This document shows positions 5,105 through 48,868 of a stretch of 64,000 nucleotides of DNA, in pieces. The stretch lies in assembly GCA_029775855.1 (NCBI GenBank), contig JARVJZ010000002.1, positions 64,001 to 128,000 on the forward strand, written 5' to 3'. Source of the stretch: Nitrososphaeria archaeon. GTDB taxonomy: Archaea; Thermoproteota; Nitrososphaeria; Nitrososphaerales; JAAOZN01. The notes beneath the pieces are model-generated. The model worked only from the letters and a program-made list of their open reading frames with translations. It searched no databases and was not told the DNA's origin. Numbering within the stretch: position 1 is the first letter of the stretch; the number at the start of each line of letters is the position of its first letter. The position numbers and the translations under genes were made by a program.

Positions 5105-6124
5105 ATGAAGGCTGTAGTATATTATGAACATGGTGGAGCAGATAAGCTGATCTATGAAGAAAGAGAGAAGCCAAAAATTGGAGAAGGAGAAGCGTTAATT
5201 AAAGTTGAAGCTTGTGCGTTAAATAGACTTGACATACTGACTAGAAGAGGTGTTGTAAAGACCACAGCAACTCTACCACATATACTCGGTGGAGACATCG
5301 TCGGCTACATCGAGGAGCAGAAAGGAAGTAATCTAGAAATAGGCACACCAGTCCTTGTCTACACAGCAATAACTTGTGGTAGGTGCCAAGCTTGCCTTTC
5401 TGGTAAAGAGAACCGCTGCCAATTTCTTAAGATGATAGGCTTTCATACAGATGGAGGTTATGCAGAGTATGTTCGAGTGCCTATTCGAAACCTTATACCC
5501 CTTAACCCTAAAATTCCACTGGAGGAGTATGCTGCCATACCTATTGATTACACTACTGTGTGGCACGCTTTAGTTGAAAGAGGCAGTCTTAAGGTTGGTG
5601 AGAGTATCTTAATCTGGGCAGGCGGAAGCGGCGCGGGAACAGTCGCATGTAGATTGGCCAAACTTATGGGTGCTACGGTCTTTACAACCGTTGGCAGCGC
5701 TGACAAAGCTGAGAAGGCAAAGAGCTTTGCAGATTACGTATTTAACCACTATACTGATGATGTGCCTAAATCTGTGAAAGAGGCTACTGGAGGAAGAGGT
5801 GTTGATGTAGTCTTAGATTATGTTGGCTCAGCAACTTGGAGAAAGAGTCTTGAATGCTTAGCTGTAGGTGGTAGAATGATAACCTTCGGCGGATTAAGCG
5901 GGTTTAGTGGTGATGTAGATATAAGAGCATTCTACACGAGACACCTTACGCTCATAGGAACCTACTATGGAACAAAACCTGATCTCCATAAAGCACTAGA
6001 ATTTGTTGAGAAAGGACTTCTAAGACCTATAATAGATTCCATCTACCCGCTTAAAGATGCTCAGTCAGCGCATATTAGAATGGAGGAGAGTAAACACTTC
6101 GGAAAGATCCTACTCAAACCTTAA
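5105..6124 (+). CDS. Zn-binding medium-chain dehydrogenase/quinone reductase
   Basis: CGRCQACLSGKENRC structural Zn site, AGGSGAG nucleotide-binding loop and HFGKILL C-terminus. Confidence 0.9.
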   Translation: MKAVVYYEHGGADKLIYEEREKPKIGEGEALIKVEACALNRLDILTRRGVVKTTATLPHILGGDIVGYIEEQKGSNLEIGTPVLVYTAITCGRCQACLSGKENRCQFLKMIGFHTDGGYAEYVRVPIRNLIPLNPKIPLEEYAAIPIDYTTVWHALVERGSLKVGESILIWAGGSGAGTVACRLAKLMGATVFTTVGSADKAEKAKSFADYVFNHYTDDVPKSVKEATGGRGVDVVLDYVGSATWRKSLECLAVGGRMITFGGLSGFSGDVDIRAFYTRHLTLIGTYYGTKPDLHKALEFVEKGLLRPIIDSIYPLKDAQSAHIRMEESKHFGKILLKP

Positions 6125-9100
6125 GATACGGGTATCTTCAGCTCCCCTCTATGTATCATCTTTAACCCTTCAACAAATGCTTCAGCGTCTTCGTAGGTTG
6201 TTAGCACTGGAACACCTAACTCAACAGCCTTCCTCCTAATCTGATACTCATCCTCTAACATACTCGCGAACTTCTCTAAAACACTAGTAGAAGGTATGTT
6301 TATGATAAGTTCGAGCTTCCCTTCAACCAAATAGTCAAGAATGTTAGGTTTACGCTCTGGCTCGCTAATCTTATTCAAAACTTTAACACATAAACCCCCT
6401 TTCCTCTCCAAATATTCCGCTGTATGCTCAGTAGCATAGACATTAAAGTTGAGCCCGATTAACTCCTTTGTGAGGTTAAGTATTCGATCTTTCAATTGAA
6501 TGCCTCCTACTGTTATTAGTATGTTGCCATTAGGTTTAGGTATCTTGTAGCCTACCGCTATGAGCGCCTTTATTAAAGCCTCAAAAAAGCTCCTACCAAA
6601 ACACGCGACTTCCCCTGTTGAACGCATCTCTACACCAAGATGAGGATCTGCTCCGTCGAGCTGCATAAATGAAAATTGAGGCGCTTTTACACAGACTTGC
6701 GTCATAGATGAATCTCCTCTCGGCAAAGTTGGAATCTTACCGTTGAGTATCGCTAAGGCAGCAAGCGAAATTAGGTTCACGCCAGTGGCCTTGGATACAA
6801 AAGGCATAGATCTAGAAGCCCTAAGATTACATTCTATAACATAGACTATACCATCCTTATATAGAAACTGTATGTTAAAAGGACCCTTTATTCTAAGGCT
6901 CTTAGCTATCTTAGTAGCATACTCTACAGCGACTTGCTGAACATCTGCTGGAAGTCTTTGAGGTGGTATGCACATTATAGCGTCGCCAGAGTGAACACCA
7001 GCTTGCTCAACATGCTCTATAACCGCCCCAATATACACACTCTCTCCATCACAAACACCATCGATCTCAAACTCTTGCGCATCCATTATGAACTTACTTA
7101 TAACTACAGGATGCTCTGGGCTAACCTTCGCCGCCTTTAGCAAAAACTGCTCTAGATGCTTCTGCGTCCAAACGATTCTCATAGCTGCTCCACTTAACAC
7201 ATAAGATGGTCTTACCAAGATTGGGTAGGAGACCTTCTTAGCGAAGGCTTTAGCATCTTCTATGGAGGTGAAGGTGCTCCACTCTGGCTGTGGTATATGT
7301 AGCTCGTCTAAAAGTCTACTGAATTTCGCTCTATCTTCAGCTCTATCGATATCCACACTGTCTGTGCCTAGTATCTTTGCGCCGTATGCTGTTAAGGAGG
7401 TTGCAAGGTTATTAGGTATCTGCCCACCTACAGAGATTACAACACCAAAGGGGCGCTCTTTCTCATAGATGTCCAAAACCCGCTCTAGCGTCAATTCTTC
7501 AAAATAGAGTTTGTCACTCATATCATAGTCTGTTGAGACTGTCTCTGGGTTGCAGTTAACCACAATAACTTCTTCAACACCATTATTCTTCAGATCCCAA
7601 ACCATATTCATAGTAGACCAATCAAATTCAACCGAACTTCCTATCCTATAAGTGCCAGCACCTAAAACCATCACCTTCATCACATCCCTAAATTGTATAT
7701 CGTCTGTATCACCGTTGTAAGTAAAGTAAAGGTAGTTCGTCTTAGCCGGCCACTCAGCAGCTAAGGTATCTATCTGCTTAACCACCGGCACTATATTGAG
7801 CCTCTTACGAAGAAGTCTAACTTCAGACACAGACAACCCTATACACTCAGCTATCTGAGCATCTGAAAAACCTAGCTGCTTTGCTCTACGAAGAAGATCA
7901 GGAGCATCACCACTAGCTACTTTTCTCGCCTCTTTCCTTAAGATTCTTTCCATTTCGATGATGTTCTTGATCTTGTTTATGAACCAAGGGTCGATGCTGC
8001 TCAGCTTATTTATTCGTTCAACCGTAAAACCGGCTTTAAGTGCATCTGCTACATCAAAGATTATTTCATCGGTCATACGCTGCAGCCTAGCTTCGATTTT
8101 ATCCGGATCAACCAACGGTTCGTGTCTACTATCTGCTACAAGCCCATTCTTGCCTATGTCAAGCATTCTGATAGCTTTCTGTAGAGCTTCTTCGAAACAT
8201 CTACCGATAGCCATAACTTCCCCAACAGACTTCATCTGTGTACCTATGTTTCTAGTAACTTTATCGAACTTTGTTAAATCCCATCGCGGCATTTTAACAG
8301 TAACATAGTCAAGCGCGGGTTCAAAACCAGCTGTAGTTATACCAGTGACTTTATTGATCAACTCTGAAAGCGAGTAACCCAACATAAGCTTCGCAGCAAT
8401 GTATGCTATTGGGTAGCCTGTCGCCTTAGATGCTAGTGCTGATGAACGTGATAGTCTGGCGTTTATTTCAATAGCAACATATCTTTCTGAATTGGGTTCT
8501 AAAGCGAATTGTATGTTACACTCTCCTACTATTTTACAAGCTTCAGTAGCCTTTAAAGCAGCTGTTCTTAGAAGATGATATTCCCGATTGTTTAGGGTCT
8601 GTGAAGGGGCTATGACTATGTTATCGCCAGTATGGACTTTCATAGCTAAAATATTCTCCATATTACATACAGTCATACCGTTTCCATAGGCATCTCTCAT
8701 AACTTCATATTCGATCTGCTTCCAAGTTCCTATATACTCTTCAATAAGCACTTGATGCGTTAAGCTGCTCATCAACCCTCTGGTAACGATCTCCTCAAAC
8801 TCGTATTCGTTAAAGGCTACTCCACTACCCCTACCTCCAAGTGTATATGCTACACGAACCATAATCGGGTATCCTAGTTCATCAACAATCTTTTTCGCTT
8901 CTTCAAGCGAATATGCAGCTGCGCTTCTCGCTACGGGTATACCCGCGTCTAGCATAGTCTTACGAAACAAATCTCGATCTTCGGTAGCTTCGATGCCTTC
9001 TATGGGTGTGCCAAGCACCTTGACACCATACTTGTCTAAGACACCCCTTTTTGATAACGTGATACCACAGTTCAGAGCAGTCTGCCCTCCAAAGGATAGC

Positions 9101-9381
9101 ACGATGCCATCAGGCCTCTCAGCCTCAATGACTTCTGTAACGAAGTCAGCATTAACTGGTAGGAAGTAAACTTTTCCTGCTAACTTCTTATCCGTCTGAA
9201 TAGTAGCGATATTCGGGTTAACGAGAACAGTCTCTATACCCTCCTCTCGAAGGGCCTTAAGACATTGGCTGCCTGAGTAGTCGAACTAGCGGCTGCTTTA
9301 GCAGCTCTCGCCTGCTTCACCTATCTTAATGGCCCCACTGCCTAGGACGATAACCTTCTTTATAGAGCGGTTAAGTGGTAT
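6121..9381 (-). CDS. carB: carbamoyl-phosphate synthase large chain, intron-split: exon 1 9381-9307, exon 2 9285-6121 (1079 aa spliced)
   Basis: Two ATP-grasp halves plus an MGS domain. The N-terminus (M)PLNRSIKKVIVLGSGAIKIGEAGE^FDYSGSQCLKAL...NPNIATIQT lies upstream of the ORF-track start (9102), in frame but interrupted by a 21-nt insert. Confidence 0.9.
9286..9306 (-). other. putative BHB-type (tRNA-endonuclease-spliced) mRNA intron in carB
   Basis: AGCUGCUAAAGCAGCCGCUAG; folds as GGCG-AG^A-GCUGC(UAAA)GCAGC-CGCU-AG^U; contains in-frame UAA and UAG; removal gives GGC GAG UUC GAC (GEFD). Confidence 0.85.
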
Positions 9382-10516
9382 GGCTTCTCACCTCCATTCT
9401 TTGGGCGAACATGTCAAATATGTAAGTAGTATCATATGGTCCAGGAGAAGCTTCTGGATGATACTGCACAGCTAGTATAGGTTTGGCTTCGTGATACACC
9501 CCTTCTACCGTCTTGTCGTCTGCGTTTATCATCCATATATCTAGCCCACTCTTATCTATAGAATTTGGATCAACAGCGTATCCGTGGTTTTGGCTTGTTA
9601 TATAGTTGCGTCCAGTTTTAAGATCTATGCACGGTTTGTTCTGCCCTCTATGCCCATATTTCAGCTTATATGTATCCCCACCTAATGAAAGAGCGATTAT
9701 CTGCAGACCTAGACATATACCGAGCATGGGTATACCTTCATCCACAAGAGACTTTACAGTTTCAACTGTCTTCACACAAATCTTAGGGTCTCCAGGCCCG
9801 TTACTCACAAGCACCCCTTTCGGATTATATTCCATTATTTCTGACACTGAAGTGTTGTATGGAACACGTATGACTTTAAGCCCTCTTTTCAGTAGCTCCC
9901 TTATTATACCATACTTTACGCCACAGTCTATCAAGACAACTTTATGTTCTCCTTCACCATAGATAATAGGCTCTTTTACGCTAACCACACTTACAAAATC
10001 TTGTTCACCATATTTTTTAGCGCTAGCCAGTAGCCTCCTTACATCTTCTACATCAATCTTATCTTCTGCTACAGCTAATACACCCATCATAACACCTTGC
10101 ACACGGAGCTTCTTAGTTAGCTCACGACTATCAATGCCCTCAATGCCTGGCACACCTTCTTCATAGAGCCAACTGTCAAGACTCTTTTTAGATCTCCAGT
10201 GGCTAGGCGCCCTACAGAGCTCACTGACTACAACACCAGAAACTTGTGCTTGATCTGACTCGAAGTTTAGAGGTATATTATTTTGGTCTACATCACTGTA
10301 AAGGGGGACACCATAATTTCCTATAAGTGGGTACGTGAATGTTAAGATCTGCCCTCTGTATGAAGGGTCAGTTATGCTTTCAGTGTAGCCCACCATTCCT
10401 GTAGTAAATACTACTTCACCTACCTTTGTTGTTGGATAGCCAAAGCCGCGTCCCCAAAAAAGAGTGCCATCTTCGAGTAGGAGCGCAGCGTTATAGTCTC
10501 GTTTAGGAGCAACCAA
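9371..10516 (-). CDS. carA: carbamoyl-phosphate synthase small chain
   Basis: GEVVFTTGMVGY, SNGPGDP, GICLG and QYHPEASPGP motifs. Confidence 0.96.
   Translation of the reverse strand: MVAPKRDYNAALLLEDGTLFWGRGFGYPTTKVGEVVFTTGMVGYTESITDPSYRGQILTFTYPLIGNYGVPLYSDVDQNNIPLNFESDQAQVSGVVVSELCRAPSHWRSKKSLDSWLYEEGVPGIEGIDSRELTKKLRVQGVMMGVLAVAEDKIDVEDVRRLLASAKKYGEQDFVSVVSVKEPIIYGEGEHKVVLIDCGVKYGIIRELLKRGLKVIRVPYNTSVSEIMEYNPKGVLVSNGPGDPKICVKTVETVKSLVDEGIPMLGICLGLQIIALSLGGDTYKLKYGHRGQNKPCIDLKTGRNYITSQNHGYAVDPNSIDKSGLDIWMINADDKTVEGVYHEAKPILAVQYHPEASPGPYDTTYIFDMFAQRMEVRSHTT
9388..9395 (-). promoter_or_regulatory. Shine-Dalgarno GGAGGTGA for carB
   Basis: GGAGGTGA lies 6 nt upstream of the ATA at 9381, inside the 3' end of carA. 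Confidence 0.65.
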
Positions 10517-48609: not shown

Positions 48610-48672
48610 GATAAAAATATATACGGAAAATTATGGTGGGGCCGGCGAGATTTGAACTCGCGGTCGCCAGCG

Positions 48673-48685
48673 TTCTAGCCTTAGC
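48673..48685 (-). other. canonical 37/38 tRNA intron (13 nt)
   Basis: GCUAAGGCUAGAA; central helix CUGG/CUAG; bulges GG^G and AA^C. Confidence 0.85.
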
Positions 48686-48692
48686 CCCCAGG

Positions 48693-48708
48693 CTCACCGG
48701 CTCAGCCT
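48693..48708 (-). other. non-canonical 30/31 tRNA intron (16 nt)
   Basis: AGGCUGAGCCGGUGAG; folds as UACC-AG^A-GGC(UGA)GCC-GGUG-AG^C. Confidence 0.82.
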
Positions 48709-48868
48709 CTGGTATCCTTGACCAAACTAGACGACGGCCCCCGTGGTTCCTTGGCTAGTGTGGTAGTTTTTAATATTATCTATCTTTACGCTCAGTTTTC
48801 CGTCAACCGATTAGATAAAGATTCTTTGGGAACGTGGTGGCAGTTCCGTACAGCAAAGAAATGATTGT

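Follow-up and report, generated by a model that had tools for sequence, protein, structure and literature searches.

A putative bulge-helix-bulge intron in carB of a Nitrososphaeria archaeon and same-site inserts in its relatives

In a 64,000-nucleotide (nt) stretch of DNA from a Nitrososphaeria archaeon (GenBank assembly GCA_029775855.1, contig JARVJZ010000002.1, positions 64,001 to 128,000; hereafter the window, whose own numbering is used below), we found that carB, the gene for the large subunit of carbamoyl-phosphate synthetase (CPSase), is interrupted by 21 nt carrying two in-frame stop codons. The insert is very probably a relaxed bulge-helix-bulge (BHB) intron that would be removed from the mRNA by the tRNA-splicing machinery. 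Because no variant of it can be translated through and the gene is under purifying selection, CarB synthesis would depend on splicing wherever the intron is present. A preliminary description of the window had proposed both the intron and the splicing dependence, and the proposal is now strongly supported by conservation of the site, the lack of a readable form among 89 variants, covariation, purifying selection, a single gene copy, and the presence of two EndA genes and one RtcB gene.

The interrupted carB gene

The minus strand reads AUA GGU GAA GCA GGC GAG (AGC UGC UAA AGC AGC CGC UAG) UUC GAC UAC UCA GGC, with the insert in brackets, and the interruption falls between the motifs IGEAGE and FDYSG of CarB. 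In-frame translation across it gives ...KIGEAGE-SC*SSR*-FDYSGSQCLKALREEG... (asterisks are stops), and translation from 9381 gives IPLNRSIKKVIVLGSGAIKIGEAGE-SC*SSR*-FDYSGSQCLK..., followed by an unbroken frame to 6121. The preliminary description had placed the insert, its strand and its two stops correctly to the base, and its statement that the rest of carB is intact holds as well: exon 2 (9285..6121) is a single open frame, which on its own scores 1401 bits against TIGR01369 (CPSase large subunit, cut-off 1027) and covers profile positions 25-1050 of 1052. The first ~24 profile positions, unmatched by exon 2, are coded by the 25 codons upstream of the insert, and exon 1 supplies the N-terminal strand and Gly-rich motif of CarB. 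As judged from open frames and a TIGR01368 profile match, carA lies directly upstream of carB (Table 1).

The scissile phosphate in BHB motifs lies after the second bulge nucleotide, according to excerpts of PMC12397907. Applied to the predicted fold, this rule removes exactly 9306..9286 and restores GAG/UUC (the slash marks the junction), and with it IGEAGE-FDYSG, just as had been proposed; intronless relatives carry the identical rejoined carB junction, and the close ones among them read exactly GAR/TTC at the site. The window genome assembly (1.5 Mb in 6 contigs, 98% complete) holds no second carB, the next-best matches being ATP-grasp relatives that are 27% identical.

Table 1. Features of the carB locus in the window; a slash marks a predicted cut
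Feature	Position	Strand	Remarks
Putative BHB-type intron AGCUGCUAAAGCAGCCGCUAG, 21 nt	9286..9306	minus	in-frame TAA 9300-9298 and TAG 9288-9286
Predicted central 4-bp helix, 5' strand GGCG	9309..9312	minus	Gly codon GGC plus G of Glu codon, in exon 1
Predicted 5' bulge A-G/A	9306..9308	minus	predicted cut between 9307 and 9306
Predicted intron hairpin	9292..9305	minus	arms GCUGC 9305-9301 and GCAGC 9296-9292; loop UAAA 9300-9297
Predicted central helix, 3' strand CGCU	9288..9291	minus	within the intron
Predicted 3' bulge or loop A-G/U	9285..9287	minus	predicted cut between 9286 and 9285; relaxed, without conserved closing helix
carB exon 2	6121..9285	minus	1054 codons plus stop; single open frame; TIGR01369 match
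carB exon 1	9307..9381	minus	25 codons, (I)PLNRSIKKVIVLGSGAIKIGEAGE; ATA 9381-9379 at the start position
carA (small subunit)	9371..10516	minus	TIGR01368; final 11 nt overlap carB exon 1
Shine-Dalgarno-like element GGAGGUGA	9388..9395	minus	ends 6 nt before ATA

Same-site inserts in relatives

Among 30 carB loci of relatives, the window included, 13 have an insert of 17-30 nt at exactly the same codon boundary and 17 have none. A pattern scan over one genome per prokaryotic species returned at least 120 matches; among the matches listed, 117 of 120 lie in carB and the other three are chance matches in bacteria. The record titles among those listed are nearly all Nitrososphaerota or Thaumarchaeota, and the named records include Nitrosopumilus, Nitrosotenuis, Nitrosotalea, Nitrososphaera, Nitrosocosmicus, Cenarchaeum, Nitrosopelagicus, and Nitrosomirales. 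For example, carB bears the intron in the cultured Ca. Nitrosotalea devanaterra (L132), Ca. Nitrosotenuis chungbukensis MY2 (L057), and Nitrosopumilus sp. b1 (L051).

In an even sample of 201 genomes from the window's order, a pattern allowing 12-40 nt found a same-site insert, 17-40 nt long, in 92, while the reversed control pattern gave no match in the same genomes. A carB N-terminus is recognisable in 177 of the 201; as counted from the table, it is uninterrupted in ~80 and undecided in 6. Outside the order, one of 256 sampled genomes of the phylum matches (G258).

That single match belongs to another order of the same phylum. It consists of a 23-nt insert at the same carB site (G258:C3:46458-46503), after GGG-GAA and without the central helix in the same register; it could be another kind of interruption or a differently folded intron.

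Each of five named intron-bearing ammonia oxidisers has one full-length carB, with one additional contig-end fragment in G211. As a separate observation, G082 and G090, of the same order, each have two contigs with carB N-termini of identical scores, reflecting either an assembly duplicate or a recent duplication.

A conserved fold with compensatory changes

The comparative structure set comprises 89 distinct intron variants of 17-34 nt. No variant can be translated from end to end: in 44 the length would shift the frame, not being a multiple of 3, and 71 have an in-frame stop. The central helix pairs the exon sequence GGYG (the Gly codon and the first G of the Glu codon) with the four bases that stand two nt before the 3' end of the intron, with four pairs in 73 variants and three in 16. 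The 5' bulge has 3 nt throughout (AAA in 69, AGA in 19, AGU in one), the inner stem (h') has 3-10 contiguous pairs in every variant and comes in 21 stem types, and the 3' site is made of the final two intron bases and the first U of the Phe codon. Both helices together (at least three central and at least three contiguous inner-stem pairs) are present in 89 of 89 variants, as compared to 0.28 of 89 expected after shuffling. Beyond the needs of the BHB fold, no conserved content was seen in these introns, whose loops and stems vary freely.

Covariation was evaluated in the gap-free 21-nt class (36 distinct sequences, alignment A1, 500 shuffles). Of all cells, 93.2% are paired, as compared to 82.7 +/- 0.9 in the shuffles, and 39 cells are compensatory against 11.3 expected; none of the 500 shuffles reaches either value. 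Compensatory changes occur in four of the five inner-stem pairs, while control registers slid by 1-3 columns reach only 20-55% pairing. With no structure supplied, RNAalifold recovers the same central helix, 3-nt 5' bulge, and inner stem, and its consensus puts the 3' site in a 1x5 internal loop. As predicted from these alignments, the carB motif has a canonical central helix and 5' bulge and is a relaxed BHB, not the strict hBHBh' form. The preliminary description had named same-site inserts with compensatory changes as one check of the intron, and the 92 genomes and 39 compensatory cells provide both.

The exon side of the helix is constrained as well. The Gly codon is GGC in all intron-bearing rows of the 201-genome sample except G004 and G044, which have GGT and form either a G-U pair or a pair with a compensating A. 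Of the 17 loci without the intron in the 30-locus set, only one has GGC.

Coding constraint and the start region

The ratio of nonsynonymous to synonymous substitution rates (dN/dS) is 0.049 between two intron-bearing species of the window's genus (dS 0.76) and 0.040 between an intronless pair, and ranges from 0.02 to 0.05 for carB overall. In exon 1, minority letters at codon positions 1, 2, and 3 number 145, 62, and 625. Since exon 1 varies mainly at third positions, it appears to be translated in frame with exon 2, and both exons are, by these substitution patterns, under strong purifying selection. The nearest in-frame ATG, GTG, or TTG lies 61 codons past the insert, and a protein from that start would miss 86 residues, the Gly-rich N-terminal motif included; a product of exon 2 alone is therefore not credible.

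Exon 1 of the window carB has no ATG, GTG, or TTG. The element GGAGGUGA is followed 6 nt later by ATA in the window and in G001, whereas the intronless congeners G002 and G003 have GTG there, with the same element at the same 6-nt distance. The preliminary description had stated that unspliced mRNA yields a 27-aa peptide; this length holds if translation starts at ATA 9381-9379, and only then.

Several further observations were made on the start region. A canonical start is missing from 47 of 114 distinct exon-1 stretches of intron-bearing genes, in three of the 47 owing to a second intron; L005, L032, and many of L036-L155 are also of this kind. Many records labelled Nitrosopumilaceae have a conserved CTG-CCA-AAA at the carB start position, and those labelled Nitrososphaera have no clear start position in exon 1.

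Proposed processing, the enzymes, and points against it

We propose that the 21 nt at 9306..9286 would act as a BHB intron within the carA-carB transcript, where exon GGCG of the pre-mRNA would pair with intron CGCU to give the central 4-bp helix, flanked on the intron side by the 3-nt bulge AG/A and a 5-bp hairpin, and on the exon side by the 3' site AG/U in a looser bulge or loop. Such a relaxed BHB would be of the type accepted by two-subunit splicing endonucleases. EndA would cleave each bulge behind its second nucleotide, RtcB would ligate the exons into ...GGC GAG/UUC GAC..., which reads IGEAGE-FDYSG, and full-length CarB would be encoded by the spliced mRNA only.

The window genome encodes one RtcB and two EndA paralogs (PF01974) of 185 aa and 180 aa, the EndA genes lying in the regions C1:250462-250695 and C1:5132-5386. 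The 185-aa paralog is closest to the crenarchaeal chains 3p1z_B, 2cv8_A, and 2zyz_B; the 180-aa paralog is divergent and also matches NEQ261. A host with a two-subunit endonuclease and a relaxed 3' site fit each other.

A number of points weigh against this reading. The fold proposed in the preliminary description is recovered only in part: the minimum free energy structure of the window sequence contains the GGCG/CGCU helix, the 3-nt AGA bulge, and the GCUGC-UAAA-GCAGC hairpin, and on the 3' side it prefers a 1x1 loop and a 3-bp helix to a clean bulge of 3 nt. The 3' site departs from the canonical form, a 3-nt bulge with a closing helix, and the only possible closing pair there uses the freely varying third base of an Ala codon. 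The fold energy of the single sequence is unremarkable (z = -0.32; 76 of 200 shuffles fold equally well), and BHB-like motifs are common by chance, with 21,685 in the window genome by loose rules; since both are so, it is the exact placement and the comparison with relatives that carry the signal. The missing canonical start means that CarB expression requires a second unusual step. Cleavage and ligation of the carB mRNA in vivo are what we infer from genomic sequence. The two EndA paralogs are presumably the alpha and beta subunits, an assignment that goes through the catalytic and structural identity of the matched Protein Data Bank chains. A broad substrate specificity of this pair would follow by analogy from its two-subunit architecture (excerpts of PMC5829648).

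The genome was also scanned for other open reading frames (ORFs) interrupted by BHB motifs. The settings called for an intron length of 12-80 nt, a strict central helix of 4 bp (2 or more of them GC pairs), an inner stem no shorter than 4 bp, and open flanks of no fewer than 20 and 100 codons; long introns and relaxed motifs would be overlooked. The 21,685 motifs gave 297 ORF joins and, after a start-codon filter, 30, of which carB is the only convincing one. The genome-wide scan suggested in the preliminary description thus recovered carB and no other convincing case. One candidate, C5:184651-184678, was rejected as a second BHB-interrupted ORF, as it joins neighbouring genes of which the second has an ATG of its own. 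The gene cbf5 is uninterrupted here, its TruB_N matches lying within one stop-free frame of 328 aa.

Turnover of the intron and alternative explanations

The intron is distributed unevenly at every level. Within the window's genus it is present in two species and precisely absent from the other two, and in the 201-genome sample 4 of the 19 genomes in genus g23 and 18 of the 46 in family f10 have it, while nine families of the order have no same-site insert. A 9.5-kb metagenome contig from which the intron is precisely absent (L163) is 98.4% identical over 4797 nt, gap-free, to an intron-bearing single-cell locus (L112). L163 was considered as a possible spliced cDNA and rejected as such; it has genes on both strands, so that it is DNA and counts as evidence of polymorphism. 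A scan of metagenome contigs gave 12 intronless carB junctions, none of them identifiable as cDNA. L160 and L168 belong with this presence/absence case.

From this distribution, the intron is most likely a dispensable passenger that has been repeatedly gained and lost, and not a regulator. Precise loss appears to be frequent, perhaps by way of the spliced mRNA, and regain may possibly occur.

The same site is also occupied far from the window's lineage. L080, L099, L107, L065, L081, and L090, which are metagenome-assembled genomes (MAGs) labelled Woesearchaeota, 'ainarchaeum', Methanosarcinales, or 'archaeon', some of them with DPANN labels, have a same-site intron in a CarB only 51-58% identical to that of the window. 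Such occupancy of distant carB genes may reflect either an old origin or lateral spread. It was also observed that the six records share an upstream gene ending ...NRS(Y/F)LWK(L/I), and the Methanosarcinales labels may for this reason be mis-binned.

A mobile, site-specific intron is a tentative alternative to the passenger reading, and one we hold to be rather unlikely. It would have spread laterally into the same carB site, for instance by reverse splicing or by recombination at sequence that rebuilds the BHB. The distant CarB proteins of the DPANN-labelled MAGs, the patchiness down to strain level, and a second, independent insert eight codons upstream in three MAGs all fit such spread, and the helix needs exon GGC/GGU-G, which is mostly missing from intronless genes. 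However, no near copy of the carB intron (up to 3 mismatches) occurs elsewhere in the window genome, no donor came to light, and the same pattern would result if the intron were old and had been precisely lost many times. In its fullest form, which we regard as doubtful, carB would be a recurrent landing site for mobile mini BHB introns moving between Nitrososphaerota, DPANN-type lineages, and strains. Insertion where Gly-Glu/Phe-Asp codons rebuild the motif and erasure through spliced mRNA are together put at the same low likelihood. If this held, the turnover of introns in prokaryotic protein genes could be traced live in carB, where some lineages would have them in tandem, and tested in cultivated ammonia oxidisers.

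The second insert deserves a description of its own. In L065, L081, and L090, a second BHB-like insert of 29-31 nt lies eight codons upstream of the main intron (~25-55 nt), in phase 1 within the Leu codon of GSGA-L-KIGEAGE. Its hairpin has 9 bp and its central helix 3 bp plus a mismatch, and removal of the insert restores GSGALKIGEAGE. As this is a conserved peptide, the two would be tandem introns within ~25 nt of coding sequence.

The preliminary description had further suggested a regulatory link, in which the intron couples the supply of carbamoyl phosphate for arginine and pyrimidines to the capacity or state of tRNA splicing through modulated splicing. CarB could indeed not be made without splicing from any gene with the intron, many lineages have kept the site, and the weak, non-canonical start of many intron-bearing genes would fit a low, tunable expression; removal of a BHB intron from the 5' untranslated region (UTR) of HVO_1309 in Haloferax also seemed to matter for the expression of that gene (excerpts of PMC7714728). 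Against this suggestion, the intron is precisely absent from two congeners and from a 98.4%-identical contig, and patchy within genera (two species with and two without in one; 4 of 19 in g23). Its absence from nine families in the sample and the lack of anything conserved in the intron beyond the BHB fold point in the same direction, as does the lack of any visible motif of a ligand-like or protein-site kind, and we consider a regulatory gate improbable.

Two further explanations have hardly any chance of being correct. Translational recoding, by ribosome bypassing in the manner of phage T4 gene 60 or by read-through, would dispense with RNA processing; a stop codon soon after the Glu codon and a stable hairpin within the gap would suit it. 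Bypassing, however, needs matching take-off and landing codons. Take-off would be at GAR, yet not one of the 89 introns ends in GAA or GAG, since C, U, or A always stands third from the end. The 44 variants of a length not divisible by 3 could never be read through, and a conserved helix between the exon and the 3' end of the intron, with 3-nt bulges, would be useless for bypassing.

An artefactual insert, a pseudogene, or an exon 2 expressed from an internal start can likewise be dismissed, the missing canonical start in exon 1 and extra +1 frame breaks in carB of two named records (L057 and L105) being set against an insert that recurs in more than 100 independent assemblies, a carB with no second copy in the genome and a dN/dS of 0.02-0.05, an exon 1 that evolves as coding sequence, and the 86 residues, Gly-rich motif included, that a start 61 codons into exon 2 would forfeit. 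An assembly error, and a second intact carB beside a relaxed copy, had been named at the outset among the findings that would refute the intron, and neither was found. Five sequencing runs were listed for L044 (1-3000), a Nitrosopelagicus-labelled MAG with a homologous intron of 20 nt; all appear to be DNA and none is RNA, and DNA contigs from such runs span the intron gap-free, although these contigs may be the MAG's own source.

The frame breaks themselves lie near residues 341, 817, and 870 of carB in Ca. Nitrosotenuis chungbukensis MY2 (L057) and near residue 627 in Nitrosotalea sp. TS (L105), each being +1 nt. They were rejected as introns, as they contain no ~20-nt insert, and are sequencing errors or decay.

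Comparison with known systems

A BHB intron in crenarchaeal cbf5 pre-mRNA was reportedly described by Watanabe in 2002 and Yoshinari in 2006. Such introns are placed in Desulfurococcales and Sulfolobales of the Crenarchaeota (Yokobori 2009; excerpts of PMC2738675), and the same excerpts state that no archaeal pre-mRNA splicing was confirmed besides cbf5, other predictions cited there being in a Sulfolobus virus and Sulfolobus genomes. A 2020 paper likewise names cbf5, in the excerpts of PMC7714728, as the sole additional mRNA BHB intron reported besides its own 5'-UTR case. Among the matches inspected in open-licence PubMed Central full texts and bioRxiv, we found no description of a BHB intron in carB or in thaumarchaeal mRNA, in agreement with what had been supposed beforehand. 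For Ca. Nitrosotalea devanaterra, the excerpts of the genome paper mention introns only in tRNAs and 23S rRNA (PMC4836417). On sequence grounds, carB would be the second protein-coding host gene of BHB introns besides crenarchaeal cbf5. In both cases the hosts have a splicing endonuclease of two subunits, the intron comes and goes patchily between related organisms, and the genes are mis-called by gene finders. They differ in that cbf5 encodes an RNA-modification enzyme and carB a core metabolic enzyme, and in that the carB hosts are the ammonia-oxidiser order of Nitrososphaerota and some DPANN-labelled MAGs. Splicing of cbf5 has been shown experimentally, whereas that of carB is predicted here from genomes.

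Relaxed BHB motifs (HBh', BHL) in non-canonical tRNA introns were reportedly classified by Marck and Grosjean in 2003. In Thermoproteota, non-canonical tRNA introns with relaxed BHB motifs are on record (excerpts of PMC5829648). As is predicted for the carB motif, these have a 4-bp central helix, 3-nt bulges, cuts two nt into the bulges, one relaxed site, and the same enzymes. In carB, unlike in tRNA, the exons are mRNA codons, and the exon half of the helix is a Gly-Glu codon pair constrained by coding.

In eukaryotes, the unconventional splicing of HAC1 and XBP1 mRNA relies on cutting by IRE1 and ligation by RtcB or Trl1. As would be the case for carB, an endonuclease and an RNA ligase change the protein encoded by an mRNA independently of the spliceosome. 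There, however, a stress sensor cuts and the event is regulatory, while no sensor or regulation is evident for carB. The closest archaeal parallel in a non-coding position is the HVO_1309 intron of Haloferax volcanii, where the splicing endonuclease also acts on mRNA. In contrast to carB, that intron lies in the 5' UTR and not in coding sequence, the endonuclease is of a different architecture, and cleavage has been shown in vivo and in vitro (excerpts of PMC7714728).

If confirmed, the carB intron would bring archaeal mRNA splicing into a core metabolic gene and into about half of the sampled genomes of the ammonia-oxidiser order. As several members of that order are cultured, direct experiments could then address such splicing, how efficient it is, and how it evolved. 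In intron-bearing genomes, gene callers will shorten carB or label it a pseudogene, and pathway reconstructions from MAGs may wrongly infer arginine or pyrimidine auxotrophy. Presence and absence at strain level, occupancy of the same site in distant lineages, and the tandem intron provide unusually clean material for the study of intron turnover.

Other observations in the window genome

Archaeal AmoA (PF12942) has no match in the window genome (G000), which is weak evidence, as control genomes were unmatched too; if the absence is true, the organism would be a non-ammonia-oxidising member of its order. ARAGORN finds 33 tRNA genes in the window genome and predicts introns in 13 of them, some doubtful, and many tRNAs with non-canonical introns are probably missed by it here. 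No tRNA is called in the window by the default tRNA tool; the intron mode of ARAGORN places a tRNA-Ser(AGA) with a 29-nt intron on the minus strand at 48634-48741 (C2:112634-112741).

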